The notes under the pieces were generated by a model. The model was not told where the DNA came from, did not search any database, and saw nothing but the letters and a program-made list of their open reading frames with translations. Source: Candidatus Omnitrophota bacterium (GTDB lineage Bacteria > Omnitrophota > Gorgyraeia > Gygaellales > Profunditerraquicolaceae). Taken from it: a stretch of 64,000 bases of DNA. Shown here piece by piece: positions 37,786-53,256 of the stretch (position 1 is the stretch's first letter; each line of letters starts with the position of its first letter). Both the position numbers and the translations under genes were made by a program. The stretch covers positions 170,198-234,197 of the forward strand of contig JAPLLW010000007.1 in assembly GCA_026387355.1 (NCBI GenBank), given 5' to 3'.

Positions 37786-38181
37786 TTAATGGAGTGAAAA
37801 GCTTTGTGATGGATGACTAAAATCTGAGGAAGGCTTGCTGAAATCATCCGAAGGCCGGCTAAATTCACCCGAGGTTTTATTAAAATCATTTGAGGGTTGG
37901 CTAAAATCATCTGATGGCGAGGAAAAGTTATCTGAAGGTTTATCGAAATCACCTGAAATAGGCGAAAAGTCTATAGAAGAGTCGGAGAAATCTTCTGATG
38001 GCCTTCTAAAATCTCCTGAGGATATATTAAAGTCTTCTGAGGGCATATCAAAATCATCGGAAGGCTCGCTAAAATCCTCCGATGGCTTCTTAAATACAGC
38101 CTCATTAGTATCATTCACAGAAGCTAAAACAAACTGTACAGATAATAATACAAATAAGATTGCATACACTAACCTTTTCAT
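37786..38181 (-). CDS. secreted acidic tandem-repeat protein (PSxDF heptad/octad repeats)
   Basis: Signal peptide 'MKRLVYAILFVLLSVQFVLASV', then about 14 tandem units of 'PS[ED]DF[SND]x'. The plus-strand ORF 37835..38185 is the antisense mirror of the repeats. Confidence 0.5.
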   Translation of the reverse strand: MKRLVYAILFVLLSVQFVLASVNDTNEAVFKKPSEDFSEPSDDFDMPSEDFNISSGDFRRPSEDFSDSSIDFSPISGDFDKPSDNFSSPSDDFSQPSNDFNKTSGEFSRPSDDFSKPSSDFSHPSQSFSLH

Positions 38182-38223: not shown

Positions 38224-39786
38224 TCAAACAGATTTGCCATTGGCGTTAATTTGTTTTGAAAAATAGCCTCCAGTTAGAGAATCTATAGAAGCGGTTAACT
38301 CTTTAACCCGCAGCTCTTTTTCAAAACGTTTTCTGCGATCTTCAATTTGAAGGCTATCCATCTCCATCTTTACGCGAATTCGTTCAAAATAGAGCTTAAC
38401 AACTTCATCTAATATATCGTTGCGCAACTGTACCGTAAGACGGGAACGCGTATCAATAGAAGTTTGATCGTCATTCCAAATCAACTTGCCTAAATCCCAA
38501 CTTAAAACTACCCCCCAATCCAAGCTATCGCGGCCGCGCCTCAATGTATCGTCGTCAGCTTTAGTCGTAGAGCCGCCTTCCCAATGCCATAGATCAGTAG
38601 TATTCCTATCTAATCCAAAATTAACTTCTGGTAGGAGTGCCTTTGCGCAAGCCTGCTTTCGCCAAAGCGCTATCTTCTCAGGGTTAACCTCAGCATAGTT
38701 AATCGCAGCCTGCTGCACACTTTCAATACCGGGTTCTCCTTTAGTATATTCCATAACGATGTCATCTGACATACTCATAAGCTTAAAATTAAGTGCTGCG
38801 CGAAATAATCCCTTATCTGTACAAACGTAAAGATTCGCTTCTTTATCAAATCCCATGAAATTAATTATACTTGCGGGAAGCCCCAAAGATACCTCTTCCC
38901 AGCGATCTCCCTGATATACAAATAAACCTGACTTAGCAATTGCATAAACCTTGGATTTCTCAGAGAGCGCTAAAAACTGTGTGTCTCGGCTAAGTAAACC
39001 ATTATCAGAAAACAGCTCCCAATCAAGCCCCTGGGAACTACTCTTATAAATTCCGCGGTTGGTAGCAAGATATACAGTATTAATATGCTTCGGATCTAAA
39101 GCAATATACTTTACCCCTGAATAGAAATCTTCTTCTTGAGCTCCCTCAACCTCATCTTCAAAATCGCTGCCCTGACCTGAAGTCTTCGTAAAGTAAATCC
39201 TTTGCCAGCTTGACCCTGAATCTAAACTCCTGTATGCACCTGAAGTCGAGGCTATATAAACCTGGCTTAGTTCAATAGATGAACAGGTAATGTTAAATAT
39301 CTGACTTTCCCCAAGCTTACCAGGCTCTTTATGCCACGACCGGCCACCATCATTACTCTTAAACAAACCAGAGTTTGTTCCTAATAGGATTCCGTTTGAC
39401 ACTAAAGCAACCGAAGTACAACTGCCCTCAGAATAATTCTTCCCCTGAAATATCCTCTCCCACCTTTTGCCTGCATCCGAACTAGCATACAAACCTGCAG
39501 CAGTTGCAGCAAATATTCTGTTTTTGACTTGTTTATCAAAAACAAGATAGTTTACACTTCTGTTACTTCCTCTCACCTGTAAGAGATTATTCCAGGTTTC
39601 CCCTCCATCAGCACTCTTAAACAGGCCCTTATCCGAACCTAAATAAACCACTTTTTGATTTCCCGGGTCAACTACTACAAATTTTACATTGACAATACCC
39701 CGACTTACCTCCTGCCAGCTTACTTCGGCACACCAACAAATACTACAGATACTAAATAGTCCCCAAAATACTATCCCCATCTTCAT
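38224..39786 (-). CDS. secreted BNR/Asp-box repeat protein (Ycf48/sortilin-like beta-propeller)
   Basis: Signal peptide. Repeated S-x-D-x-G-x-T/S-W units ('SADGGETWN', 'SSDAGKRWERI', 'SNDGGRSWH', 'SLDSGSSWQRI'). Confidence 0.65.
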   Translation of the reverse strand: MKMGIVFWGLFSICSICWCAEVSWQEVSRGIVNVKFVVVDPGNQKVVYLGSDKGLFKSADGGETWNNLLQVRGSNRSVNYLVFDKQVKNRIFAATAAGLYASSDAGKRWERIFQGKNYSEGSCTSVALVSNGILLGTNSGLFKSNDGGRSWHKEPGKLGESQIFNITCSSIELSQVYIASTSGAYRSLDSGSSWQRIYFTKTSGQGSDFEDEVEGAQEEDFYSGVKYIALDPKHINTVYLATNRGIYKSSSQGLDWELFSDNGLLSRDTQFLALSEKSKVYAIAKSGLFVYQGDRWEEVSLGLPASIINFMGFDKEANLYVCTDKGLFRAALNFKLMSMSDDIVMEYTKGEPGIESVQQAAINYAEVNPEKIALWRKQACAKALLPEVNFGLDRNTTDLWHWEGGSTTKADDDTLRRGRDSLDWGVVLSWDLGKLIWNDDQTSIDTRSRLTVQLRNDILDEVVKLYFERIRVKMEMDSLQIEDRRKRFEKELRVKELTASIDSLTGGYFSKQINANGKSV

Positions 39787-39835
39787 CTTGCCACCTCCTG
39801 CCTTAATAGACGAAGCTAGGAGGATAATCTAACTC

Positions 39836-39992: not shown

Positions 39993-40064
39993 ACAAAAAA
40001 AAGGGGTCAGAATTATTTATTCTAGCACATAAACTGTTGAATAAATAATTCTGACCCCTTTTTT
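39993..40064. repeat. palindromic mini-repeat element, long-loop form (copy A)
   Basis: Arms 'AAGGGGTCAGAATTATTTATTC' / 'GAATAAATAATTCTGACCCCTT' form a perfect ~24-bp inverted repeat around a 16-nt loop, with A- and T-runs outside. Lies immediately 3' of the gene ending at 40079. Confidence 0.7.
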
Positions 40065-40535: not shown

Positions 40536-40778
40536 TTAGGATTTATGAATTTCTTCTATCAGCCTTGCTTTCAAGGTTTTAGCTGAATCTATCTTATCTC
40601 CCGAAATACCCGCCTCCATGGCAAAATCAATCAATCCACGAAGTATTTCGTTATAGGAGAGTTTATGTCCTGTTGAGAAAAGAGCATCTTTGCCTAGTTT
40701 ATCCAGGAAATCTATCTCCTGTCGGCCTAGCATGGTGATAACTCTGTGCACCATGATCTGTTTATCTAGCTTGTTCAT
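40536..40778 (-). CDS. small hypothetical protein (~80 aa)
   Basis: The ORF track starts at 40811, but an ATG at 40778 ('MNKLDKQ...') is preceded by 'AAAAGGGGGTGG' at SD distance. No recognisable domain. Confidence 0.45.
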   Translation of the reverse strand: MNKLDKQIMVHRVITMLGRQEIDFLDKLGKDALFSTGHKLSYNEILRGLIDFAMEAGISGDKIDSAKTLKARLIEEIHKS

Positions 40779-40814
40779 ATTGTACCACCCCCTTTTCAAA
40801 ATGTCCAGCATTAT

Positions 40815-40959: not shown

Positions 40960-40988
40960 CAAAAAACCCTAAAAGGCTTATTTAGGGT
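40960..40988 (-). terminator. rho-independent terminator (minus strand)
   Basis: Minus strand: 'CCCTAAAtaagcctTTTAGGG' followed by 'TTTTTTGTTT'. Confidence 0.55.
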
Positions 40989-41260
40989 TCATCCTTTTGG
41001 TAACCCCGCTATCCGCCACACTTCATGACGGACCGGAAGCTTTGCCTCTGCTTCGCTCTTTAATTAATGACTTATTAACTTTCGAGCTTCGCAGAGCCCT
41101 ACGAAGTCCGTCATAGCTTTTTCAAGCCTATTAAAGGACGAAGTAGGGGCCCCAACATTACTGTTAGTTTGCCTCCGCCACACTTCGTGGCGGACCCGCC
41201 ATCTTTGTGGCGGGTTTATCACTAGGTCAAATGCACCAAATTGTCAAAGTGTCAAATTAC
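40960..41260 (-). ncRNA. candidate ~300-nt highly structured small RNA or long leader (unclassified)
   Basis: Bounded by a near-consensus sigma70 promoter (41261-41296) and an intrinsic terminator (40960-40988). Contains several perfect GC-rich hairpins ('CCCGCCAcaaagaTGGCGGG', 'CCGCCACgaagtGTGGCGG', 'GGGGCCCC') and nested long-range pairings ('TGACGGAC'...'GTCCGTCA'). No match recognised to RNase P, SRP, tmRNA, 6S or common riboswitch cores. Confidence 0.3.
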
Positions 41261-41296
41261 ACTTGAAGTATAACATATTTTTTTGGCATTTGTCAA
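41261..41296 (-). promoter_or_regulatory. sigma70-type promoter (minus strand): TTGACA, 18-nt spacer, TATACT
   Basis: Minus-strand reading 'caccTTGACAaatgccaaaaaaatatgtTATACTtcaagtg'. Two further TTGACA hexamers follow within 40 nt downstream. Confidence 0.5.
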
Positions 41297-41302
41297 GGTG
41301 CC

Positions 41303-43495
41303 CTAATTTTGAGTTTCCAGGCTCAAAATCTCTGCTTTTACCTCTTTATAGCTTATAAGATCCAAACTACTATAAATTTCCTGCGCCTGGCGCAGATGTT
41401 CCCTGGCTTTGCTCTTTTTACCCAGCTTCTTAAACAGCAATCCCAGATTTCGCTCTGCTGCGGCCAATTCTAGCCTTGAATGGACCTGGGTAGCAAATAT
41501 AACTGCCTGTTTTAAGGCCTCTTCTGCCTCTAGGGACCTATCCATTTCCATATAGAGCTCGCCAATCATGTTATAATCAGAAGCTAAATTTACCTTATTG
41601 CCCTGCAACTGATCAATTCTTAGGCCGGAAAGATAGGAATCTAGCGCCTTTTGATACTGTTTTTCATATAAATAGAGCTCTCCTAAGTTAAAATAGTAAT
41701 CGCTTAGCTCATGCTTAAGCGCTAATTTCTCAAAAAGCGCCTGGCTTTTACGGTAAAATTGTTGGGCAGTGCCATAATCGTCCTTATTAGCAAAAACCAG
41801 GCCAATATCAAAATAATCGCAAGCCAGATTATAACGATGCGCATAAAGATGCTGATGCTCTAAGTTAATAGCTGTGCTTTTAGTTAACAAAACAAGTGCG
41901 GTGTCGTAATCCTTCTTATCTGTATGCCAGACCGCAAGCTTACGCAGCGCTATAGCCTCATTTAACTTATCACCATGCTTGACTGCAAGATTAAGCGCCT
42001 TATTGTAGAAATCAAGGGCTTTTGCATATTCACCTTCTAATTGATAAAACCAACCGATTTCAATATACGCTGATAAAAGGCTCTTAGTATCCTGTTTTTT
42101 CTCAACCAGTAGCGCATAAGTAAAATAGAAATTAAGCGCTTTTTCTTTATCACCGGTCCGGTAATATGTATCTGCCAATAGGTGATAAATCTCGGCAAAA
42201 GACTTATCTTTACTAATTATTTGCTCACCTAGCCTAAACACCTCTTCATTCTTACCTTTAGCAAATAATTTATTTGCCTTTAAATAAAGATAATACGCTC
42301 CCGGGTTAGTGGTTGGCAACCACAAATAAAAGAATGTGCTTAGCAAGAAAATGCTCACTAAAAGAATAATTCCGGGTATCCATTTCTTACTTAATTTTAA
42401 TTTGTGCCTTGGCTTAATTGACTTTTGTTTTGGCTTAAATATAACAAAACCAGGATCTCCGTAAAGTAAGTAATTAGCCCAATGTAATGAAATTATCCCA
42501 TATTCGTTAACTAGTTTAACTCTGGCTAAACGCACGCTCTCTCCCACTGATCTTCCATGGATCAGACAATGATAAAATTCTTTGGCAAAGGTTAGGCTTG
42601 CGCAATCTTCAATTCTACGTATCGATCCTATATAATGCCTTACTCCGGAAAATAGAAATGCCGCAGCTAGAGAATAATTCTTTCTCTGATAATCATGTTC
42701 AATTATAACCTCAACTCCTGCTTGGGCTGAATGACATGCATTTGAGAATACCAGCGTCGGTAAAGAGGCAGCCTGGCCCATACTTAAAATATCCTGAATG
42801 GAAAATTTACCATCGCTTAAGACCCAGCCGCTATTCTTTGGGTTCTGCGCTACATATTCGCAATGACCGGCAAAATGAACTATATCGTAATCGCAAAAGT
42901 TCTTTTTAACATACAGTTTATCAATATTGGTTGATTTGAAATCCACATGCATGGATGAGATGCTACGAGAAAACTGATTCTTGATATTTAAACCCTCCGC
43001 ATATGCCGCTTTTAAATCATCGGTAGGATTAGCTAGAATTAGCATCTTATAGATGTGCGTAGGATTGCGGTACTGAAGTACGCCTGCCTGGCTTTTAGTT
43101 CTTACTTGCCTGCCAATATTAAAACTCAAACAGAGAAAGTTCTGCCCGTCATACAAAACCTCCCAGGGGATATTGATTAATTCTTCGTCGATAACCAGCG
43201 CTAGATTTAAGACTTCACTTGCCTTTAATCTCTCCTTAACTGAGCGGCTAAGTAGATGATCCCAAAGCGCCTGGCCTGTCTTTTGAAGGTTTTTGATTAT
43301 TGCAGAATCTTTTGCTTGGGCCTTGTTCCAAACTGAGGTAATCTCATGACAAAGCTTATCGATCTCGCTAAAATCTATCTTGTGCTGGCTATAACGCTTA
43401 AGCGTTGAAGCAGTCTCTTCTGAATCAAAGATACTCATCTTCAGAAGATCATCCTGCCGGCTTATTTCTAAAACTAATCCTTTTTCACTCTGCAT
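41303..43495 (-). CDS. CHAT-domain (caspase-like) protease, single TM helix, C-terminal TPR-repeat domain
   Basis: N-terminal ~350 aa show CHAT hallmarks: 'INIPWEVLYDG', catalytic His in 'IVHFAGHCEY' and catalytic Cys in 'LVFSNACHSAQAG'. TM helix 'IPGIILLVSIFLLSTFFYLWL' lies at about residue 372-392. About 330 aa of TPR-like repeats follow (repeated 'A..YY..G..Y...G.Y..AL..Y..AL'). Confidence 0.8.
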   Translation of the reverse strand: MQSEKGLVLEISRQDDLLKMSIFDSEETASTLKRYSQHKIDFSEIDKLCHEITSVWNKAQAKDSAIIKNLQKTGQALWDHLLSRSVKERLKASEVLNLALVIDEELINIPWEVLYDGQNFLCLSFNIGRQVRTKSQAGVLQYRNPTHIYKMLILANPTDDLKAAYAEGLNIKNQFSRSISSMHVDFKSTNIDKLYVKKNFCDYDIVHFAGHCEYVAQNPKNSGWVLSDGKFSIQDILSMGQAASLPTLVFSNACHSAQAGVEVIIEHDYQRKNYSLAAAFLFSGVRHYIGSIRRIEDCASLTFAKEFYHCLIHGRSVGESVRLARVKLVNEYGIISLHWANYLLYGDPGFVIFKPKQKSIKPRHKLKLSKKWIPGIILLVSIFLLSTFFYLWLPTTNPGAYYLYLKANKLFAKGKNEEVFRLGEQIISKDKSFAEIYHLLADTYYRTGDKEKALNFYFTYALLVEKKQDTKSLLSAYIEIGWFYQLEGEYAKALDFYNKALNLAVKHGDKLNEAIALRKLAVWHTDKKDYDTALVLLTKSTAINLEHQHLYAHRYNLACDYFDIGLVFANKDDYGTAQQFYRKSQALFEKLALKHELSDYYFNLGELYLYEKQYQKALDSYLSGLRIDQLQGNKVNLASDYNMIGELYMEMDRSLEAEEALKQAVIFATQVHSRLELAAAERNLGLLFKKLGKKSKAREHLRQAQEIYSSLDLISYKEVKAEILSLETQN

Positions 43496-43500
43496 TCTGC

Positions 43501-44202
43501 TTAACCTTTTATATCTAATATAATTGAAGCAAGTTTGCCTTTGTCGCTAAGCACCTCTAAACTATACCTACCCAATAAAATATGCTCAAAAACAACCGGG
43601 CCAACGGCGCCAGAATATGATTCCAACTCCAAATTATCCTTAAACAGAGAGACTCTTAAATCCTTAATTGCATCCTGGCTGCGCTTATCTGCCACCTTAA
43701 TTATGACATTAAAATACTTATCACCTTTATTCTCAATTCTTACTTCTATTTTTTTATCGCCGATGTTTTTTAAAATCACTACCTCACCCTTAAAATCTTT
43801 TATGTTACGGCTGCGTAAAACCGGAGCCGGAATCAACTCCTGGCCCATAAGAATATCTCCGGTTGTATTAATTACCTCGAAAACATTTTCCTTAAGCCTT
43901 AACAATATCTCAAATACATTGAGCTTATTGCCTGCATCTAACAGCGCTCTTACGCGACAAAGCAGTTCCTCGGGGACATCTAAAGCTTCTGACTTCTCGC
44001 TATTTAGGCTAAGCGCTAAAATCTCTGCGCAACTTTCACATGTTAATAGATGTGTTTTAATACGCTCGCTTTCTTCGGACGGCAAGACCCCATCTAAGAA
44101 ACAGGCAAAAGTCTCATCATCCGGATGCTCTCCTTCAATACGGGAGCGCTTCTTCGCTCTTCTATAAAGCAGCTTAACTAACTCTTCAAACTTCTCAGAC
44201 AT
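43501..44202 (-). CDS. anti-sigma factor with N-terminal zf-HC2 (ZAS) domain
   Basis: 'FACFLDGVLPSEESERIKTHLLTCESCAEIL' matches the zf-HC2 consensus (..YLDGEL...E...VE.HL..C..C...L). Lies directly downstream of the ECF sigma gene. No TM helix evident. Confidence 0.65.
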   Translation of the reverse strand: MSEKFEELVKLLYRRAKKRSRIEGEHPDDETFACFLDGVLPSEESERIKTHLLTCESCAEILALSLNSEKSEALDVPEELLCRVRALLDAGNKLNVFEILLRLKENVFEVINTTGDILMGQELIPAPVLRSRNIKDFKGEVVILKNIGDKKIEVRIENKGDKYFNVIIKVADKRSQDAIKDLRVSLFKDNLELESYSGAVGPVVFEHILLGRYSLEVLSDKGKLASIILDIKG

Positions 44203-44234
44203 AGTCCTCTCCTACAATAATAGACGCGCTCACA

Positions 44235-44840
44235 CTATAAATCTAACTTAAATCCTTTTCCCTTAAAACACTCCTGCAGCTTCTCAATGAACCTGGCTTT
44301 CTGCATATCTATAGCGCCACGCGAAAGCTTTAAAAAATCCTTTAATACCTCCAGCTTTATCCCCTGGTTAATATTTAACTCAATAAGATACTTCTCCTGC
44401 TTACTTAACTTTTCAATGCAATCATTTAGACTATTAAGCATCTCTTCGTAATTTAAAAGGTCCGGAATAGAGATTGAGTTATCGGTTAATAAGTCTTTGA
44501 GGGCGACACCTTCCCCAACTTCCGCATCAAGGGAAACAGTTGATTTAAGCCTGCGTAAATAATCAAGCGTCAGATTTATGGTAACCTTCCTTAGCCATGA
44601 AGCCAGACTGCAACCGTTTATAGCCTTAAAACTGCGTAGTTTCTTGTAGTCGTCTTGGATTAAAGCAGAAAATAGCTCTTGGAAAATATCTTCGATGAAA
44701 TCCTGGTTAGCAGAAAAACCCTTTGAATTTAAGACACTGTGGATGTACTTGTAGATTAACAGGCGATAACGCTTCAAGAATTCATCCCAGGATTGCTTAT
44801 TACCACTACAGCATCCCTGGACAAAATCCAGATCGTTCAT
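44235..44840 (-). CDS. ECF-type RNA polymerase sigma-70 family factor
   Basis: Region 2 ('LIYKYIHSVL...DIFQELFSALI...WLRKVTINLTLDYLRR') and region 4 HTH ('LSKQEKYLIELNINQGIKLEVLKDFLKLSRGAIDMQKARFIEKLQ'). 201 aa. Confidence 0.75.
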   Translation of the reverse strand: MNDLDFVQGCCSGNKQSWDEFLKRYRLLIYKYIHSVLNSKGFSANQDFIEDIFQELFSALIQDDYKKLRSFKAINGCSLASWLRKVTINLTLDYLRRLKSTVSLDAEVGEGVALKDLLTDNSISIPDLLNYEEMLNSLNDCIEKLSKQEKYLIELNINQGIKLEVLKDFLKLSRGAIDMQKARFIEKLQECFKGKGFKLDL

Positions 44841-44877
44841 AGGTGCATTATAGCATTTTCGACCCTAAAAACAACAA

Positions 44878-44969
44878 TAAATGGGGTCAGAATTAATTCA
44901 AATAAAGGGGTCAGAATTATTTATTCAAACCTTAATAGCCGGAATAAATAATTCTGACCCCTTTATTTC
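44878..44969. repeat. palindromic mini-repeat element, composite (half short-form + full long-loop form; copy B)
   Basis: 'AATAAATGGGGTCAGAATTAATTC' is the left half of the short palindrome. Then come the arms 'AAGGGGTCAGAATTATTTATTC' / 'GAATAAATAATTCTGACCCCTT' around a 15-nt loop. The element abuts the stop codon of the gene ending at 44969. Confidence 0.7.
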
Positions 44970-47200: not shown

Positions 47201-47236
47201 CAAAAAGGGGTCAGAATTAATTCTGACCCCTTTTTG
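47201..47236. repeat. palindromic mini-repeat element, short form (copy C), acting as gap terminator
   Basis: 'CAAAAAGGGGTCAGAATTAATTCTGACCCCTTTTTG' is a perfect 36-bp palindrome between gap (end 47273) and the downstream gene start. Confidence 0.75.
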
Positions 47237-48365: not shown

Positions 48366-49350
48366 CTATTTCGAATTTAAATATTTAGCGGCTAACTCCG
48401 GAGGCGTAGAATTGACGTAGAAACCCGTACCCCATTCAAAACCTGCGACCTGTGTCAGCTTAGGCATAAACTCAATATGCCAATGATAAAACTCTCCGTC
48501 CCCTTCACCATTAATCGGAGCAGAGTGAACAATATAATTATATGAAAGATTCGGGAAAACCCTCTTCATCTTTACAATTGTCTCTTTTAGGATCTCTCCA
48601 AGGGCAGAGAGTTCTCCGGATAAATCCTGACAAAAATGACCGCTATGCTTCTTAGGAATTATCCAGGTTTCAAAAGGAAAACGCGAAACAAAAGGGCAAA
48701 AAGATAAAAAGAACTTATTCTCCGCAACTATGCGCTCTTTTTCCTCAATCTCTTGTCTGATAATATCGCAAAATATGCATCGCTCCCGGAAATCAAAATA
48801 TGCCTTTGCCCCATGTATCTCCTCTAGCGCATTCTTGGGAACCATAGGAAGCGCAACAATCTGTGTGTGTGGATGCTCTAAGGACGCCCCTGCTGCAGGA
48901 CCAAAATTCCTAAAATACATCAAATATTTAAAACGTTTATCTTTTGCTAAATCCGTTCCTCGACGGCAACACATCCTTAAATAATTTTCAACTTCAATCT
49001 GAAATATCTTTTGCATGATACGGTGTTTCAATTAAAACCTCATGCGCACCAACGCCATTTGACATATCATAAAGACCAAGTGGCCTACGATCAAGATCAC
49101 CTTCAATCTGTAAGGCAGGATATTTATTTGCCACTACGCGCACCTGCCACCCTGAACTGTTCGGCCAGGTCTGAGGATCACGAATTGACTCAATTTCGGG
49201 AGGAGTCATAGACTCATTGCCGTAACAAAATGGACAGACTCCGCCTTTCGGGACATACTGATCGTATTGAAAATCATCCGGTCTCGAAGGATGATCTGTA
49301 TCTACAATCACCCACCTACCTACAATAGGATCTTTTCTTAATTCAGCCAT
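48366..49350 (-). pseudogene. GalT-like HIT-family hexose-1-phosphate nucleotidyltransferase, frameshifted (two overlapping ORFs 48994..49350 and 48366..49031)
   Basis: The N-terminal ORF ('ELRKDPIVGRWVIV...CPFCYG...') and C-terminal ORF (canonical 'HPHTQIVALP' HxHxQ) together are collinear with the intact paralogue upstream. A +1/-1 shift occurs near 48994-49031, in an A/T homopolymer context. Confidence 0.6.
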
Positions 49351-50375
49351 TAAGCTTCTACTCCCCTTAAAAATTTAGCTCCCTCTTCAGGAGACAAAGG
49401 ACAGATATAAAAACCCGTTCCCCACTCAAAACCAGCTACGCGCGTTAAACGCGGCATAATTTCAATATGCCAATGAAAATCCTGATCCAGCGTCTTCCAG
49501 TAGCCTATTTTTTCCCTACGAAAAGGCGCGGTGTGGATAACATAATTATACGGCGGGTCATTTAGCCCCTTCTTAAGCTTCGAAAGCACAATCTTCATTA
49601 CCTTGCCAAGATTCTTTAAAGATTCGCTATCCTGACAGGTAAAATCGCAGCAATGTTTTTTAGGTAATATCCATATCTCAAAAGGAAAACGCGCCGCAAA
49701 AGGACTAATTGCTACAAATCCATCTAGGTCCAGAACAACTCGATCCTTAGTCGCTATCTCCTGTCTAATTACATCGCAGAATACACATCTCTCGTGATAA
49801 TCATAATATTGTTTACTACCGGTAAGTTCTTCTTTTATGCGCTTAGGAGTAACTGGTGTTGCGATAAGCTGGCTTCTTGAATGCTTTATCTGGCTGCCGC
49901 CGGCATCCTTACCATAATTCTTAAAAATACAGGCATATTTAAATCGCTGGTCTTTTTCGAGGTCTATAATCCTATCAGAATAGCACTTTAATACTTTGGC
50001 TATCTGATCGCTACTTAAATCCGCCATATTGGCAATATGCTGATTAGTTTCAACGATCATTTCGTGGGCACCTACGCCATTCATCATATCATATAGCCCT
50101 TTTCCTCGACGATCTAACTCGCCTTCGACCCTTAAGAATGGCGCAATACTAGGCACAACCCTTAAGTCCCAACCAGGAGCATTCGCAGGCGTATTGCGCG
50201 GCCTTACAGCATAAACCTCAGGAGGAGTCTGTGATTCCGCCCCTTCGCAAAAAGGACATGGTTTTTCAGGACTGGTATCTTCAGATTTTACATTAAACTG
50301 ATCCGGCCGCCTGGCCCTCTCAGTTGAGATAATTACCCATCTTCCTATAACTGGATCTTTTCTTAATTCTGGCAT
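49350..50375 (-). CDS. GalT-like HIT-family hexose-1-phosphate nucleotidyltransferase / ADP-glucose-phosphorylase-like (variant active site)
   Basis: 'ELRKDPVIGRWVII', Zn site 'CPFCEG', and 'GSQIKHSRSQLIATP' where the canonical H-x-H-x-Q appears as H-S-R-S-Q. 341 aa. Confidence 0.65.
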   Translation of the reverse strand: MPELRKDPVIGRWVIISTERARRPDQFNVKSEDTSPEKPCPFCEGAESQTPPEVYAVRPRNTPANAPGWDLRVVPSIAPFLRVEGELDRRGKGLYDMMNGVGAHEMIVETNQHIANMADLSSDQIAKVLKCYSDRIIDLEKDQRFKYACIFKNYGKDAGGSQIKHSRSQLIATPVTPKRIKEELTGSKQYYDYHERCVFCDVIRQEIATKDRVVLDLDGFVAISPFAARFPFEIWILPKKHCCDFTCQDSESLKNLGKVMKIVLSKLKKGLNDPPYNYVIHTAPFRREKIGYWKTLDQDFHWHIEIMPRLTRVAGFEWGTGFYICPLSPEEGAKFLRGVEA

Positions 50376-50403: not shown

Positions 50404-51366
50404 TTATTCAACTGCTTTTTTATAGTAGCTCCCAAAACAATCGCCTATTTTAACCTTGTGCCCATGAACAAAATCTTTAGCATTCATCCTCTTCCCGCCC
50501 TCAAGCTGTAATTCTTCAATAACTAAAACGCCCTTGCCGCATACCACAAGTATCCCATCCTGGTTAACAGCCAATACGTGTGAGCAAGAAACCGAGTCCT
50601 GCTGGCTCAAACCTTCCATGCATTTGGCTTTAAATATCTTTAGCGTCTTATTCTTAAAATATGTAAAAGCCCCCGGCCAAGGCAAGCTCCCTCTTATAAG
50701 GTTATAGATCTCGACTGAGTTTTTACACCAATCAATATACCCATCTGTTTTTTTAAGCTTAGGAGCATAGCTTACCTTCTCCTCGTCTTGCGCAACTAGC
50801 TTATATTTCTTATTCTTAATCTCGTCCAGCGCCTCAATTAATAATTCTGACCCCAATTTACGTAACTTTTCCTCAATAATCACAGAATCATCATTATCTG
50901 CAATCGATATAGCTTCCTGGAGTATTATCGGACCGGAATCCATCTTCCTTGTCACCTGCATAATAGTTATGCCTGTAGTCCTATCTCCCTGCATAATTGC
51001 CCAATTTACAGGAGCTGCTCCGCGATATTTCGGTAGCAATGAAGCGTGAATATTTATGGGTAAGATTTTCGGTATATCCAAAACTTTTTGAGACAATATT
51101 TGGCCATAAGCTACGACTACAAATAAATCTGCCCCAAATTTAATAATCTGCTTAACCGATTCAGCCGAATTCACATCCTTAGGCTGGAAAATTTCAAGGT
51201 CTGCCTTCTGCGCAACAAACTTGACGTCTGTACCAGCTAAATGCAGATGGCGGCCCTTTTTCTGATCCGGTTGCGTCACCACGCAACAAATATCTTGTTT
51301 GCTTTTGATCAAAGCCTCAAGCGCAGGAACTGCAAAATGTGAGCTACCAAAAAATATGATTTTCAT
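50404..51366 (-). CDS. fmt: methionyl-tRNA formyltransferase
   Basis: 'KIIFFGSSHFAVPALEAL', 'NIHASLLPKYRGAAPVNWAIMQGDRTTGITIMQ' and the C-terminal Fmt domain. Confidence 0.9.
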   Translation of the reverse strand: MKIIFFGSSHFAVPALEALIKSKQDICCVVTQPDQKKGRHLHLAGTDVKFVAQKADLEIFQPKDVNSAESVKQIIKFGADLFVVVAYGQILSQKVLDIPKILPINIHASLLPKYRGAAPVNWAIMQGDRTTGITIMQVTRKMDSGPIILQEAISIADNDDSVIIEEKLRKLGSELLIEALDEIKNKKYKLVAQDEEKVSYAPKLKKTDGYIDWCKNSVEIYNLIRGSLPWPGAFTYFKNKTLKIFKAKCMEGLSQQDSVSCSHVLAVNQDGILVVCGKGVLVIEELQLEGGKRMNAKDFVHGHKVKIGDCFGSYYKKAVE

Positions 51367-51396: not shown

Positions 51397-53256
51397 CTAT
51401 ACCGGATCCACATCAATCGTCACTATTATACCTGAATGACGAAAGCCTTTTAAGCCTTTTCTTATAAATTCTCCTGCCAAGGCGACCTTACCCGTACGCA
51501 ACAATACCTGCCAATAAAAATTACCCCGCAGCTTCGGAGGGTTAGTTGGAGTAACCGCAACTATTCCCAACTCCTTACTCTTATTTTCTTTTGTCAATTT
51601 ATTAAACAAAGCTTCAGCCGCAACTTTTACCTTCTCTTCACTTTTACCACGCAGTTTGACTAAAATCAAATGACTAAAGGGCGGAAAATTAAGTTGTTTT
51701 CTCTGCTTTAACTCTGCTTCATAGAAATAACTTTCATCTTTTTTAAAAAGCGCCTGAAAACAATGATGGGTAGGAGAACTTGTCTGAATTAAAATATTCT
51801 TATCCGTAAGCACTAATAGCCCGGCGAGCAATTCAAAGACTTTTTCAGTTGCGCGAAAATCAACGCGATTAAGAGTATTGTCTATGCCCAATACTCCGAT
51901 AAGATCAAAATTTAGATCAGCCCTTCTAATTACGCTGCTCGTAGCTATAAATATATCTGCATCGGATATATCCTGGCAGGCTTCATCCCAAATCTTAATT
52001 CGCGCTTGAGGAAAAATTCTAGATAGCTCACTCTCCATTTTTTCAGTCCCCCCTCCGGAAAATTTAATATATCCGGCGTTACACTCAGGACATATTTTGG
52101 GAGGCTCGATCTTATAATTACAATAATGACAACTCAGCAAATTGCCTTTGTAGTGATAAACCAAGTTTATATTGCAACGTGGGCACTTTAACACTTTACC
52201 ACAGGCATGACATGCTGCCTGAGTAGCAAAACCTTTTCGATTCAAAAATAAGAGTACCTTGCCCTTTGTATTCAAAACAACATAGATTGCATCTTCAAGT
52301 ATCCTAGCAACAACCTGCTTTTTCTTTCTATCTACAAATGCCAGATGTCTGGTATCGATAAGCTTAACATCGGGAAATCTACTTTTTCTTGGTACAAGCG
52401 TGTACTTGGCTTTATCTTTCTTGCTTGAATAATAGCTTTCTAGCGAAGGAACCCTGCTTCCCAAAATTAGCTTTGCACCTTCAATTTTAGCGCGCAGAAA
52501 ACCAGCTTCTCTTGCGTGATAATGCGGCACCTGATCTTGTTTATATACGCTGCTTGCTTCATCATCAATAATAATTAAACCTAAATTATTTAAAGGAGCA
52601 AAAATAGCTGAGCGCGTCCCTGCTATTACCTGAGCCCCTCCTGATTTAACCTTTAACCATGCATCTAACTCCTTAGGTTGCTTTCTATATAAAGGTTGAA
52701 CTTCAATACCAAGTTCTTTATTAATCATTGAGCTTACCTTAGCAATATCATGAACATCCGGTAACAAAACTATCGCCGACTGATTGTTCTTTAATATCTG
52801 CTTTATTTCATTAATATACACACCCCATCTTGCCCTACCATCCAAATCATGAATTAGGGAGACCTTTTTGTCCAAATAAATGGGGTCAGAATTAATTCTG
52901 ACCCCATTTATAGAAGAATCCCCTGAGATAATCTTCTTCCCTTTTCTCAAATCATCCGGTATCGCTACCTCAATCGCTTCACCCCATGAACAGCAATAAT
53001 ATTCCGAAAGCTCTTTTGTAATCAGCAACATCTCTTTACTCAACAAAGGAACCTTATCAATTAATTCTAAAATCGGCTTTAATCTTTTAATTTCGCTTTT
53101 TTTAACTAAATCCGTAACATAACCAACTATGCGTCTAGTCCCAAAACTAACCCAAACTCTTGAACCAATCTTTATTTGCTCTGCGCAATTATCCGGGACA
53201 ATATAATCAAACGGCCCGCTTACCGGTAGCCCCACTACTACCTTAGCGAATAGCAT
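51397..53256 (-). CDS. priA: primosomal protein N' (PriA) homologue lacking canonical helicase ATPase motifs
   Basis: Collinear with E. coli PriA. Has the 3'-DNA-binding N-terminus, 'IIIDDEASSVYKQDQVPHYHAR' (versus E. coli IVIDEEHDSSYKQ) and the Cys-rich Zn region 'CHACGKVLKCPRCNINLVYHYKGNLLSCHYCNYKIEPPKICPEC'. The Walker A position reads 'DLDGRARWGVY' instead of GVTGSGKTEVY. Confidence 0.85.
   Translation of the reverse strand: MLFAKVVVGLPVSGPFDYIVPDNCAEQIKIGSRVWVSFGTRRIVGYVTDLVKKSEIKRLKPILELIDKVPLLSKEMLLITKELSEYYCCSWGEAIEVAIPDDLRKGKKIISGDSSINGVRINSDPIYLDKKVSLIHDLDGRARWGVYINEIKQILKNNQSAIVLLPDVHDIAKVSSMINKELGIEVQPLYRKQPKELDAWLKVKSGGAQVIAGTRSAIFAPLNNLGLIIIDDEASSVYKQDQVPHYHAREAGFLRAKIEGAKLILGSRVPSLESYYSSKKDKAKYTLVPRKSRFPDVKLIDTRHLAFVDRKKKQVVARILEDAIYVVLNTKGKVLLFLNRKGFATQAACHACGKVLKCPRCNINLVYHYKGNLLSCHYCNYKIEPPKICPECNAGYIKFSGGGTEKMESELSRIFPQARIKIWDEACQDISDADIFIATSSVIRRADLNFDLIGVLGIDNTLNRVDFRATEKVFELLAGLLVLTDKNILIQTSSPTHHCFQALFKKDESYFYEAELKQRKQLNFPPFSHLILVKLRGKSEEKVKVAAEALFNKLTKENKSKELGIVAVTPTNPPKLRGNFYWQVLLRTGKVALAGEFIRKGLKGFRHSGIIVTIDVDPV
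52877..52912. repeat. palindromic mini-repeat element, short form (copy D), inserted in-frame inside priA
   Basis: 'ATAAATGGGGTCAGAATTAATTCTGACCCCATTTAT' is a perfect 36-bp palindrome identical in core to copies B and C. It translates in the priA frame as ...SINGVRINSDPIYL... Confidence 0.75.

Follow-up and report, generated by a model that had tools for sequence, protein, structure and literature searches.

The locus lies in a MAG of an uncultured Candidatus Omnitrophota, within a 64-kb window, by which we mean the whole stretch of DNA analyzed. An open reading frame check found three adjacent genes on the minus strand, all where the original prediction had placed them (Table 1): an ECF sigma factor, a zinc-binding anti-sigma factor (ZAS), and a protein joining a CHAT domain, one transmembrane (TM) helix, and a TPR array, whose start codon falls 5 nt past the ZAS stop codon. 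Co-transcription of the trio, as first proposed, holds only in part: the junction between sigma and ZAS carries a conserved internal element that resembles a promoter. Upstream of the sigma gene, a membrane/spermidine-synthase-like gene ends at a hairpin terminator; 10 half-sites of the palindrome that it copies occur in the window, against 0.05 expected. In many genomes, the locus is set in a conserved run of core genes (thioredoxin, DRTGG-domain-like, pta-like, and ackA-like), as named by eye from their translations.

Table 1. Features of the sigma–ZAS–CHAT locus, with positions in the 64-kb window
Feature	Position	Strand	Basis or remark
Upstream-gene hairpin terminator	44900..44968	-	Copy of repeated palindrome GGGGTCAGAATTATTTATTC
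Extended -10 promoter element TGCTATAAT	44847..44855	-	6 nt 5' of sigma ATG; no Shine-Dalgarno sequence
ECF (group IV) sigma factor, 201 aa	44235..44840	-	TIGR02937, Sigma70_r2
Putative ECF-type promoter motif GTTAGATTTATAGTGTGAGCGCGTCTA, GTTAGA-N15-CGTCTA	44221..44247	-	Overlaps last sigma codons and stop
Soluble zinc-binding anti-sigma (ZAS), 233 aa	43501..44202	-	zf-HC2 match
Predicted zinc-ligand codons: H26 44125-44127, H51 44050-44052, C55 44038-44040, C58 44029-44031	44029..44127	-	
ZAS Arg130 codon	43813..43815	-	Motif G115-D..P125-x-x-x-L-R130-S-R
CHAT-TM-TPR protein, 730 aa	41303..43495	-	CHAT and TPR_12 matches
CHAT caspase-like protease domain, residues 71-347, predicted cytoplasmic	42455..43285	-	PF12770
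Predicted catalytic codons: His211 42863-42865, Cys254 42734-42736	within 42455..43285	-	
Single transmembrane helix, residues 373-392, IPGIILLVSIFLLSTFFYLW	42320..42379	-	Hydropathy and AF2 helix
TPR array, residues 398-728, predicted extracytoplasmic	41312..42304	-	TPR_12, AF2
Second putative ECF-type promoter motif GTTAGATTATCCTCCTAGCTTCGTCTA	39807..39833	-	20 nt before BNR ATG
Secreted BNR/Sortilin/Ycf48-like beta-propeller, 520 aa	38224..39786	-	Pfam; predicted regulon member

Profile searches bore out the assignment of the first protein as an ECF sigma factor, with a match to the TIGR02937 sigma70-ECF model over residues 17 to 191 (64.8 bits; cutoff, 42.9) and to Sigma70_r2 (29.9 bits; cutoff, 24); hydropathy revealed no TM segment. 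A leaderless transcript had been suggested from a TATAAT at 44848 to 44853, 7 nt from the ATG. The hexamer actually occupies 44847 to 44852, 6 nt from the start codon, and forms part of an extended -10 element of the form TGnTATAAT. Among 54 non-redundant orthologous loci, 51 carry a TATAAT (at least 5 of 6 positions matching) no more than 25 nt from the sigma start codon, spaced mostly by 6 to 9 nt (3 to 11 nt overall) and preceded by the TG extension in 40 of the 51, and a Shine-Dalgarno-like sequence precedes sigma in just 2 of the 54. These counts back the suggestion, and the sigma mRNA is predicted to be leaderless and read from a conserved housekeeping-type promoter.

The second protein matched zf-HC2 with 27.8 bits (cutoff, 22.2), in agreement with its earlier designation as an anti-sigma factor. 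It comprises a helical anti-sigma domain (residues ~29 to 89) and a C-terminal Ig-like beta-sandwich (96 to 232), and no TM segment was detected in it, the maximum 19-residue Kyte-Doolittle hydropathy (KD19) being 1.06. Conservation was surveyed in 123 diverse family members, 22 to 48% identical to the window ZAS. H51, C55, and C58 of the zf-HC2 motif were each kept in 121 of them and stand as predicted ligands; the first ligand is more likely H26 than C34, with position 26 occupied by H or C in 121 members (72 His versus 49 Cys) and C34 present in 68. Arg130 exceeded the zinc ligands as the sole residue invariant across the family (123/123), which makes it a candidate CHAT cleavage or docking site. 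AF2 models its region as structured (pLDDT, about 80 to 88), with Arg130 closing a short helix (residues 126 to 131), and the residue may owe its invariance to structure or docking instead of marking a scissile bond. The 150 best matches listed were uniform at about 235 aa and included no ZAS fusions.

At least 672 homologues of the CHAT-TM-TPR protein were found; those listed are about 730 aa long, and the named homologues among the matches listed are all from Omnitrophota. All three of its proposed parts were confirmed. PF12770 matched over its entire length (113 bits; E = 2.2e-32; model positions 1 to 289 of 289), and the expected His/Cys dyad, H211 (in VHFAGH) and C254 (in SNAC), was invariant in 50 orthologues and likewise in homologues 37 to 40% identical over the CHAT domain; H207, H211, N252, A253, and C254 do not vary from phylum to phylum. 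AF2 modeled the CHAT core with a pLDDT below 50 (residues 122 to 296), too low for the model to be used. The TM segment, predicted as a helix by AF2, reached a KD19 of 2.32 against 1.08 for the next best segment, and the TPR array, which matched TPR_12 with an E value of 6.5e-33, was modeled as about 9 helical hairpins with pLDDT mostly above 90. No signal peptide was found in the protein, and K/R residues number 7 in the N-terminal and 1 in the C-terminal flank of the helix, an N-terminal excess shared by 14 of 16 homologues (table read by eye). By the positive-inside rule and the absent signal peptide, the CHAT domain would share the cytoplasm with sigma and ZAS, and the TPR array would be exposed on the outer side, which supports the proposal that sensor and protease occupy opposite sides of the membrane. 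In distant homologues, the place of the TPR array is taken by domains of types usually found in the periplasm (trypsin-like, CsgG/LpoB-like, and discoidin).

The element at the sigma/ZAS junction, GTTAGA-N15-CGTCTA, was not remarked on in the original prediction. From its end to the ZAS ATG there are 18 nt, which hold the Shine-Dalgarno sequence GGAGAGG. Just two matches occur in the window, versus 0.02 expected, and 118 in 756 kb of related loci, versus 0.09 expected. Upstream of ZAS, the motif was exact in 58 of 73 loci and matched at 10 or more of its 12 positions in 63, and wherever it was present there the spacer was always 15 nt. A kindred motif, GCAAGA-N15-CGTCT, precedes ZAS in 5 of 8 distant systems. 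The other copy in the window lies before a BNR gene, near whose start 49 of 50 loci match at 10 or more positions and 39 exactly. The encoded protein (Sortilin-Vps10, 2.5e-13; PSII_BNR, 5e-12) begins with a signal-like hydrophobic segment (KD19 peak, residues 4 to 22), and 36 of 43 loci have a homologue downstream of CHAT. Judged solely by its position and ECF-like form, the motif may be used by the sigma factor of this module. The predicted wiring goes beyond simple autoregulation of a three-gene operon: the housekeeping-type promoter would serve sigma, and the putative ECF-type promoter would drive ZAS and CHAT as well as a fourth gene.

Recurrence of the triad in related genomes, on which the original prediction had staked itself, was evident. 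Among related loci, taken as Omnitrophota with 48 to 68% CHAT identity, 75 of 76 have a ZAS homologue just ahead of CHAT, and sigma is present in 63 of 64 (41 to 73% identical). The arrangement extends to all eight distant ZAS homologues examined (about 24 to 30% identical, one from Nitrospinota), each with an orthologous sigma upstream (27 to 43% identical over aligned parts) and a CHAT protein immediately downstream. On these comparisons, the sigma–ZAS–CHAT adjacency is no chance arrangement. In the distant systems, the N-terminal CHAT part (35 to 40% identical) leads into a single TM helix; this holds for the seven that could be checked, the eighth protein being truncated by its contig end. 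The outer C-terminal domain differs among them, being TPR, Trypsin_2, CsgG/LpoB-like, or two discoidin domains, and two systems carry an extra N-terminal part, annotated in one as a guanylate-cyclase domain.

Our preferred reading, to which we give an even chance, is that the membrane CHAT protease cleaves ZAS and frees sigma, forming a three-component ECF module with a linked target. Sigma, made from a leaderless mRNA read from its extended -10 promoter, would be held by the soluble class I anti-sigma ZAS with its C-terminal Ig-like beta-sandwich, in the same compartment as the CHAT domain of a protein that crosses the membrane once and exposes its TPR array outside. Binding of a signal by the outer domain would activate CHAT, for example via oligomerization, and CHAT would then cut ZAS at or beside Arg130, in the loop after the anti-sigma domain, to release sigma. 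Free sigma would transcribe from GTTAGA-N15-CGTCTA promoters; the one at the sigma/ZAS junction would replenish both ZAS and the protease, a negative feedback that resets the system, and the other would yield the secreted BNR beta-propeller protein. Both the proteolysis of ZAS and its cut site are inferences. Csx29/Csx30/CASP-sigma (PMC10028731) and CalpL/CalpT/CalpS (bioRxiv 10.1101/2024.05.08.593097) are precedents for a dedicated protease that cleaves a soluble anti-sigma factor.

The CHAT gene lies behind a putative sigma-dependent promoter and is therefore also placed as expected of a regulon output. CHAT-TM-TPR could then be an envelope-associated effector protease or scaffold, ZAS and CHAT both being predicted sigma targets because of the ECF-type promoter upstream of them, while a cytoplasmic cue would inactivate ZAS directly, either by thiol or zinc chemistry of the RsrA kind or, like ChrR, by way of its C-terminal domain. 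ChrR is a soluble ZAS protein known as a direct sensor. RsrA is another (PMC4960319), and the window ZAS has weak NCBIfam similarity to both (RsrA, E = 2e-4; ChrR, E = 0.059), with a C-terminal domain of its own that could be the sensor. We nevertheless regard this as unlikely, since one would not expect a simple target to remain 5 nt from the anti-sigma gene across phyla while all other neighbors change, nor to keep a cytoplasmic protease constant while swapping its outer domain. The alternation of His and Cys at the first zinc ligand also misfits a conserved thiol switch, and conservation in ZAS is strongest at an Arg that is not part of the zinc site. A further option, which we rate slightly lower, is a split transmembrane anti-sigma factor: sigma would be tethered at the membrane by a ZAS whose beta-sandwich is docked on the CHAT protein, and the signal would set ZAS and sigma free through conformational change or CHAT autoproteolysis, with ZAS uncut. 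DdvA, which combines ZAS, TM, and TPR-CHAT in a single chain and for which self-cleavage in trans was proposed (PMC11506125), offers a model, as does the autopeptidase activation that Kaur et al. proposed for constant-caspase/variable-C-terminus proteins of the EACC2-caspase type encoded next to ECF sigma genes (PMC8195603); conserved residues on the surface of the ZAS beta domain (R130, K145, R183, E192, and S195) would suit an interface for docking. Against it, no docking or autocleavage site was identified, the sequence of the CHAT–TM linker is not conserved, and the invariant dyad with an invariant Arg in its partner is at least equally explained by substrate cleavage.

A role in anti-phage defense or conflict, in the manner of Craspase or abortive infection and with CHAT as a toxic effector unleashed upon infection, appears very improbable. 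CHAT proteases do act in type III CRISPR-associated defense (PMC10028731; bioRxiv 10.1101/2023.06.23.546230), DdvA/DdvS governs a defense island (PMC11506125), and sigma weakly matches the type III-E sigma model (26 bits; cutoff, 100). However, a PADLOC scan of four proteins returned nothing but two weak TPR-region matches, and the window holds no CRISPR-like array and no ORF above 744 aa; as originally noted, no cas genes are evident in it. The core-gene setting of the locus in many genomes, the seemingly widespread rather than patchy occurrence of the family in one phylum, and the secreted, envelope-type nature of the predicted targets also speak against defense.

The module had been likened to a Craspase axis, and it is an analogue of that system rather than a relative: the sigma score stays below the type III-E cutoff and the domain order is reversed. 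The anti-sigma here, in the position that Csx30 takes in Craspase, is a zf-HC2 protein. In Csx29, the TPR cradles CHAT; because the order is reversed and the membrane intervenes, the TPR array of the window protein cannot do so. A constant caspase with a variable sensor domain and a neighboring ECF sigma has already been published as cyanobacterial EACC2 (PMC8195603), and a CHAT-containing anti-sigma has already been characterized in DdvA (PMC11506125). Overall, the module shares its logic with Craspase, CalpL/T/S, and DdvA but belongs to none of them, and the pattern drawn from its sequence relatives is that of a constant output domain (CHAT plus TM helix) joined to interchangeable sensor domains.

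The three open reading frames (ORFs) predicted to encode a sigma factor, an anti-sigma factor, and a protease are arranged in tandem on the minus strand (coordinates are collected in the table below), and profile searches confirmed the domains assigned to each. The sigma factor (201 amino acids [aa]) matched TIGR02937 with 64.8 bits (cutoff, 42.9; residues 17 to 191, model positions 2 to 164 of 165) and Sigma70_r2 with 29.9 bits (cutoff, 24), in agreement with its assignment to the ECF (group IV) family. All specific NCBIfam sigma models scored far under their cutoffs for this protein, and its orthologues in distant loci matched Sigma70_r4 or r4_2. The anti-sigma factor (ZAS, 233 aa) matched zf-HC2 (PF13490) with 27.8 bits (cutoff, 22.2). 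Neither protein has a transmembrane (TM) segment, with a maximum KD19 of 0.68 for sigma and 1.06 for ZAS (0.73 to 0.96 in four distant ZAS homologues). In an alignment of 123 diverse ZAS family members, 22 to 48% identical to the window protein, the H-x3-C-x2-C zinc ligands H51, C55, and C58 are each kept in 121 (98%). The zf-HC2 assignment therefore holds, but the first ligand of the motif is more likely H26 (H or C in 121/123) than the originally named C34 (68/123).

The third product (730 aa) matched the whole CHAT model PF12770 (113.1 bits; cutoff, 24; E = 2.2e-32; residues 71 to 347, model positions 1 to 289 of 289), followed by a TM segment at residues 373 to 392 and a TPR array at residues 398 to 728, to which several TPR families matched (TPR_12, E = 6.5e-33). 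The predicted His-Cys dyad, H211 and C254, is present. Together with H207, N252, and A253, these residues show no variation across sets of 16 and 50 orthologues, and they are kept in homologues from other lineages that are 37 to 40% identical. As predicted, there is one TM helix: the hydrophobic segment is the only one in the protein (KD19, 2.32; next best, 1.08) and forms a helix in the AF2 model. Because the N-terminal flank of this segment is rich in K/R (7 residues versus 1 on the other side, with the same bias in 14 of 16 homologues) and the protein has no N-terminal signal sequence, the positive-inside rule would place the CHAT domain in the cytoplasm and the TPR array outside. AF2 modeling of the full protein, based on an alignment of 50 orthologues, gave a pLDDT mostly above 90 for the TPR array, a confident TM helix, and a pLDDT below 50 for the CHAT core; the N terminus was modeled as strands 7 to 14, 17 to 24, and 36 to 39 and helices over 42 to 92. 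Among solved structures, the best 60 matches to the full-length profile were all TPR proteins, and searches with the CHAT part, as sequence and as profile, returned nothing significant (best match, 8tl0, E = 0.011; DdvA chain 8rot, E = 1.9).

Conservation of the triad was assessed in a census of related Omnitrophota loci, 12 from species-representative genomes and 80 from metagenomes. A ZAS homologue lies upstream of the CHAT gene on the same strand in 75 of the 76 loci with at least 720 nt of upstream sequence, within 100 nt in 70 of these 75 (5 nt from ZAS stop to CHAT start in the window), and a sigma homologue is present in 63 of the 64 loci with at least 1,400 nt upstream. Identities in the related loci range from 48 to 68% for CHAT, 39 to 58% for ZAS, and 41 to 73% for sigma. 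With the 8 of 8 distant loci described below, these counts bear out the expected conservation in relatives and rule out a chance adjacency of the three genes. The single locus among the 76 without ZAS and sigma upstream of CHAT, L039, has in their place 730 nt devoid of long ORFs, together with a 129-aa ORF whose C terminus resembles an excisionase/MerR HTH; this suggests a rearrangement or insertion. The gene upstream of sigma is not conserved among related loci. Downstream genes, read by eye from translations, are largely syntenic and comprise the BNR gene (encoding a secreted BNR beta-propeller protein) and thioredoxin-like, DRTGG-domain, pta-like, and ackA-like genes.

Named homologues of the window CHAT protein were all from Omnitrophota. 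A ZAS profile was searched against 1.84 billion cluster representatives and matched 1,829 proteins with E ≤ 1e-3, of which 474 reached E ≤ 1e-10; almost all of them are 225 to 250 aa long and align end to end, and none of the best 150 matches has ZAS fused to another domain. Genomic context was analyzed for 8 among the most distant members listed (~24 to 30% identical to window ZAS), one from Nitrospinota (NCBI) and the others from MAGs or metagenome contigs. In all 8, an orthologous sigma gene lies directly upstream (27 to 43% identity over the aligned parts) and a CHAT protein gene directly downstream, the first ~350 residues of its product being 35 to 40% identical to the window protein. 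In seven systems, one TM helix comes after this part and leads into a C-terminal domain that varies: Trypsin_2 (S1-C protease) for Nitrospinota, a CsgG/LpoB-like domain in three, two F5/8-type-C discoidin domains in two, and TPR in one, which has an additional N-terminal guanylate-cyclase-like domain. The eighth protein (L102), cut by the contig end, has an N-terminal extension like that of the guanylate-cyclase-like system.

A constant catalytic domain joined through a TM helix to an interchangeable outer domain is the architecture of a sensor and not of a housekeeping enzyme. Trypsin-like, CsgG/LpoB-like, and discoidin domains typically belong to proteins of the periplasm or the cell exterior, and the swapped-in domains thus give independent support to the predicted topology. 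Envelope genes were also seen 3' of distant triads (L093 to L098). One group encodes a second CsgG/LpoB/Glucodextran_B protein and a FadL/Toluene_X outer-membrane channel downstream, and the Nitrospinota system is followed by OmpA and bacterial alpha-2-macroglobulin genes. Such neighborhoods would fit a family-wide role related to the envelope.

The upstream regions point to two classes of promoter. The TATAAT reported upstream of sigma is present, though 6 nt rather than 7 nt from the ATG, and lies within an extended -10 element (TGCTATAAT). With a match of at least 5 of 6 positions, TATAAT is found no more than 25 nt from the sigma start codon in 51 of 54 non-redundant orthologous loci (spacing of 6 to 9 nt in most and 3 to 11 nt overall), and 40 of these 51 have the TG extension; a Shine-Dalgarno-like 4-mer precedes sigma in only 2 of the 54. 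The conserved hexamer near the start and the rarity of Shine-Dalgarno-like sequences support the earlier suggestion of a leaderless sigma mRNA, which would be transcribed from a housekeeping-type promoter. Between sigma and the gene upstream of it stands a hairpin terminator. TGcTATAAT at similar spacing also precedes one other gene that heads an operon in the window; as a second candidate, this gene indicates that leaderless starts are not unique to sigma.

The original prediction had the three genes co-transcribed, but a second promoter-like motif at the sigma/ZAS junction indicates that their wiring goes beyond a single autoregulated operon. There are exactly two copies of GTTAGA-N15-CGTCTA in the 64-kb window (0.02 expected), at this junction and 5' of the BNR gene, and 118 exact matches are found in 756 kb from the 92 related loci (0.09 expected). 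The spacer is 15 nt in 85 of 85 unique instances adjoining ZAS or the BNR gene. With at least 10 of 12 positions matching, the motif lies upstream of ZAS in 63 of 73 loci and near the BNR start in 49 of 50, and a related motif, GCAAGA-N15-CGTCT, is found 7 to 46 nt before ZAS in 5 of the 8 distant systems. In L099 and L100, an exact or near-exact motif also precedes neighboring secreted-protein genes. No copy was found upstream of sigma itself. Given its CGTC-containing -10 and fixed spacer, the motif looks like an ECF-type promoter, and since it is tied to the module locus, the local sigma factor is the obvious candidate reader; from these patterns we infer that it reads the motif. Further copies in the related loci were considered as regulon members and set aside, as most have no convincing downstream ORF; no third Omnitrophota target emerged.

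If so, the circuit would be unusual, with sigma expressed constitutively and its inhibitor, the protease, and the secreted beta-propeller protein depending on sigma. Sigma-dependent ZAS and CHAT under a constitutive sigma would constitute negative feedback, the usual ECF wiring being positive autoregulation. The -35 part (GTTAGA) falls within the last sigma codons (K-L-D), and the equivalent GCAAGA of the distant systems lies in or just past the sigma 3' end; the conserved C-terminal KGF-x-L-D tail of sigma may therefore be partly constrained at the DNA level.

The AF2 model of ZAS (mean pLDDT, 75) comprises an N-terminal anti-sigma domain with helices 29 to 36, 42 to 54, 56 to 68, and 78 to 89 (pLDDT roughly 50 to 77) and a beta-rich C-terminal domain (residues 96 to 232; pLDDT, 80 to 90) that in structure comparison resembles only generic Ig-like, macroglobulin, and FN3 sandwiches. 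Across the 123-member alignment the only residue with 100% invariance is Arg130, in the motif G115-D…P125-x-x-x-L-R130-S-R; K145, R183, L186, E192, S195, G201, F205, and Y213 are at least 90% conserved. R130 ends a short helix just past the first beta-meander in the model. Several clan CD peptidases, including separase, metacaspases, and gingipain R, cut after Arg, which makes R130 a reasonable candidate for the P1 or a pseudosubstrate residue of ZAS. It is also possible that its invariance reflects a structural or docking role.

The best-supported reading of these data is that signal-activated CHAT cleaves ZAS and thereby frees the sigma factor. The outer domain, TPR in Omnitrophota, would sense an envelope or extracellular signal, upon which the cytoplasmic CHAT domain would become active and cut the soluble ZAS. 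The sigma factor, set free, would transcribe the BNR gene, and it would also transcribe ZAS and CHAT and so reset the system.

One of three main rivals holds that the CHAT protein is an output of the regulon and that ZAS senses a cytoplasmic cue directly, like RsrA and ChrR. These are cytoplasmic zinc anti-sigmas that sense redox stress or singlet oxygen directly, ChrR carrying a C-terminal sensor domain, and we know of no dedicated adjacent protease for either. ZAS shares with them its solubility and the zinc-binding motif [H/C]-x24-H-x3-C-x2-C, but its scores with the NCBIfam models for RsrA and ChrR are far below the cutoffs (21.3 versus 62.5 and 13.2 versus 124.5), and the exchangeable outer domain is not what a passive regulon member would present. 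Another makes the CHAT protein a membrane tether or a self-cleaving protein, as proposed for DdvA and EACC2 systems. DdvA/DdvS of Myxococcus xanthus, for which a CHAT protease role in sigma release has been proposed (PMC11506125), likewise unites a ZAS-type domain, one TM helix, TPR, CHAT, and an ECF sigma in one signaling unit. DdvA is a single polypeptide with a periplasmic TPR-CHAT part and depends on RseP for intramembrane proteolysis, whereas the module has its ZAS as a soluble protein of its own and its CHAT domain before the TM helix, on the predicted cytoplasmic side, leaving TPR alone outside; unlike in DdvA, no intramembrane step would be needed. Similarity to DdvA chains is marginal (ZAS with 8rlz, E = 0.069; CHAT with 8rot).

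The closest published concept, a computational one, is that of the EACC2-caspase proteins, in which a constant N-terminal alpha+beta EACC2 and caspase domain is joined to a highly variable C terminus, with ECF sigma neighbors (Kaur, Iyer, Burroughs, and Aravind, 2021; PMC8195603); in some of them the C terminus is extracellular, with TM helices, and in some it is a trypsin-like peptidase. The constant N-terminal part and variable C terminus of the CHAT proteins described here would fit that outline, their first 70 to 95 residues being a putative counterpart of EACC2. The EACC2 examples tabulated there are cyanobacterial, their partners are TRADD-N or DUF1822 TPR proteins with no zf-HC2 anti-sigma listed, and autoproteolysis is proposed instead of anti-sigma cleavage (PMC8195603). 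Pfam scans, which covered a set of window genes and those called in the 8 distant loci, gave no TRADD-N or DUF1822 TPR neighbor; the partner conserved in the module is the zf-HC2 protein, the Omnitrophota loci having been checked for homologues of the window genes only. The third main rival, a defense function, is disfavored, and a defense-island reading was rejected: PADLOC on four scanned proteins gave no match beyond two weak ones in the TPR region, the window contains no large ORF (the largest is 744 aa) and no CRISPR-like tandem array, in line with the lack of cas genes noted earlier, the locus sits in a core-genome context, and the family appears widespread in one phylum.

Cleavage of ZAS by CHAT had been likened to Craspase of type III-E CRISPR systems. 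In that system a CHAT-family protease, a soluble sigma inhibitor, and an ECF-type sigma occur together, and inhibitor cleavage is modeled to relieve sigma inhibition (PMC10028731). The module encodes the same three parts and the shared functional logic is plausible, but kinship with Craspase amounts to analogy. Cas7-11, crRNA, and a CRISPR array are lacking, and the trigger would be an extracytoplasmic signal where that of Craspase is a target RNA. No cas-domain Pfam matches were found among the called genes of the 8 distant loci, to which this screen was confined. The inhibitor is a zf-HC2 ZAS, set beside Csx30 by description only, and the window sigma scored 26.2 bits with the CASP-sigma model (NF041236, CAS_III-E_sigma; cutoff, 100). 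The domain order is CHAT-TM-TPR, whereas Csx29 is soluble with N-terminal TPR and C-terminal CHAT, and no Csx29 chain is among the eight CHAT-profile matches to solved structures. CalpL/CalpT/CalpS, a type III CRISPR system, follows the same three-part logic: a dedicated protease cuts a soluble anti-sigma and frees an ECF-like sigma (bioRxiv 10.1101/2024.05.08.593097). As described there, the protease is Lon-type, activated by cyclic oligoadenylate through SAVED, cytosolic, and CRISPR-linked, with no membrane sensor. ECF54 also pairs an ECF sigma with conserved protease-domain neighbors, its context including CHAT, subtilase, and carboxypeptidase genes, and proteolytic regulation has been proposed (PMC8999054); it is actinobacterial and has no anti-sigma, whereas the module has ZAS.

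In classical regulated intramembrane proteolysis (RIP; RseA/DegS/RseP, RsiW), the anti-sigma is itself a membrane-spanning protein, which site-1 and site-2 proteases cleave one after the other. In the module, by contrast, it is the protease that crosses the membrane, and the anti-sigma lacks a TM segment. Overall, the module can provisionally be classified within protease-controlled ECF sigma/anti-sigma signaling; it is a functional analogue of Csx29/Csx30/CASP-sigma, CalpL/T/S, and DdvA/DdvS and a member of none. No description of a sigma-ZAS-CHAT triad was found in full-text literature searches.

Several other features of the window were recorded. Rfam at the gathering threshold returned nothing, but a c-di-GMP-I (GEMM-I) riboswitch candidate lies downstream of CHAT, with 34.4 bits against a gathering threshold of 35; its aptamer seems to be split by an insertion of ~100 nt between two hairpins. 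A sigma-70-like promoter of its own lies before it, and a hairpin resembling a terminator comes after it. Clear c-di-GMP-I matches (35.6 to 72.4 bits) were found in 7 of 14 related loci, with a similar insertion in L003. The downstream gene pair orf91 and orf141 was rejected as part of the module, as the two have this promoter and riboswitch of their own and occur in only 14 to 17 of the 92 loci. In three other loci, a small ORF with an RRxxxR-type PilZ-like N terminus (by eye) occupies the equivalent position between CHAT and BNR, which suggests a recurrent c-di-GMP link at this interval. A repeated palindrome, GGGGTCAGAATTATTTATTC and its complement, forms terminator-like hairpins directly 3' of genes; 10 half-sites are present in the window (0.05 expected by chance), a similar element occurs in L042, and it may represent a REP-like or MITE-like intergenic repeat family. 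The 131-aa ORF behind the BNR gene, possibly co-transcribed with it, has a signal-like N terminus and tandem degenerate 7-aa repeats (PSEDFS/PSDDFS), seen in the DNA as 21-nt tandem repeats; a long antisense ORF is also present there as an artifact. Two tandem paralogues resemble galactose-1-phosphate uridylyltransferases (HIT family; named by eye), and the division of the downstream copy into overlapping ORFs of 118 and 221 aa suggests a frameshift or pseudogene. Over the window (1-64000) strand bias is unusually strict: the minus strand carries all 41 ORFs of at least 250 aa, and each 2-kb bin has a negative GC skew.

Coordinates of features in the window and in related loci (L numbers denote loci compared with the window)
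Feature	Sequence	Coordinates	Strand	Remark
ECF sigma gene	Window	44235-44840	-	
ZAS gene	Window	43501-44202	-	
CHAT-TM-TPR gene	Window	41303-43495	-	
BNR gene	Window	38224-39786	-	3' of CHAT gene
TATAAT of sigma	Window	44847-44852	-	
Sigma C terminus	Window	44235-44260	-	
Motif copy 1	Window	44221-44247	-	Overlaps last sigma codons; ends 18 nt before ZAS ATG; GGAGAGG between
Motif copy 2	Window	39807-39833	-	20 nt before BNR ATG
c-di-GMP-I riboswitch candidate	Window	40996-41185	-	Between CHAT stop (41303) and orf91
5' half of aptamer	Window	near 41150-41175		
TTGACA-N18-TATACT	Window	41267-41296		Promoter-like, before riboswitch
Terminator-like hairpin	Window	40964-40990		After riboswitch
orf91	Window	40536-40811		
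131-aa ORF	Window	37786-38181	-	42 nt downstream of BNR gene
Uridylyltransferase-like, downstream copy	Window	48366-49350	-	ORF overlap at 48994-49031
Uridylyltransferase-like, upstream copy	Window	49350-50375	-	Intact; candidate leaderless gene; TGcTATAAT 8 nt before ATG, no Shine-Dalgarno sequence
Palindrome copy	Window	40004-40057		
Palindrome copy	Window	44884-44960		
Palindrome copy	Window	47208-47229		
Palindrome copy	Window	50840-50853		
Palindrome copy	Window	52883-52904		
Region upstream of CHAT	L039	1-1421		
c-di-GMP-I riboswitch	L002	8267-8349		
c-di-GMP-I riboswitch	L003	3483-3633		
c-di-GMP-I riboswitch	L013	2942-3023		
c-di-GMP-I riboswitch	L014	7275-7356		
c-di-GMP-I riboswitch	L020	4704-4783		
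c-di-GMP-I riboswitch	L025	7316-7401		
c-di-GMP-I riboswitch	L029	2430-2509		
PilZ-like small ORF	L005	8235-8717		
PilZ-like small ORF	L008	2969-3328		
PilZ-like small ORF	L009	8399-8758		
Envelope genes	L093 to L095			3' of distant triads
Envelope genes	L096	7825-9837		3' of distant triad
Envelope genes	L097	7641-9701		3' of distant triad
Envelope genes	L098	7955-10006		3' of distant triad

Among the modes of signal transduction in bacteria, ECF sigma factors are the third major one, and to our knowledge inactivation of an anti-sigma across the membrane is known for few schemes, namely RIP, partner switching, phosphorylation, and direct redox sensing. We consider it possible, though somewhat short of probable, that the module represents an unrecognized transmembrane signaling class of Omnitrophota, Nitrospinota, and other lineages, in which a CHAT-TM protein with a swappable sensor cuts a soluble zinc anti-sigma at an invariant Arg and frees an ECF sigma, a one-step alternative to RIP with a constitutive leaderless sigma and sigma-dependent resynthesis of inhibitor and protease. 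Its spread beyond one phylum, modular sensor architecture, conserved promoter pair, and invariant arginine are notable. If the proposal is true, it would add a modular scheme whose sensor spans the membrane and is a caspase-like protease in its own right, with the soluble anti-sigma as its substrate, give bacterial CHAT proteases a physiological role outside CRISPR, serve as a natural relative that helps to explain regulation of the Craspase and DdvA types, and offer synthetic biology a sensor-protease-sigma switch that is compact and possibly orthogonal. Omnitrophota is, as far as we know, a phylum without cultured model organisms, and the module would be its first concrete regulatory circuit, with two promoter types, a predicted target gene, and a candidate cleavage residue.
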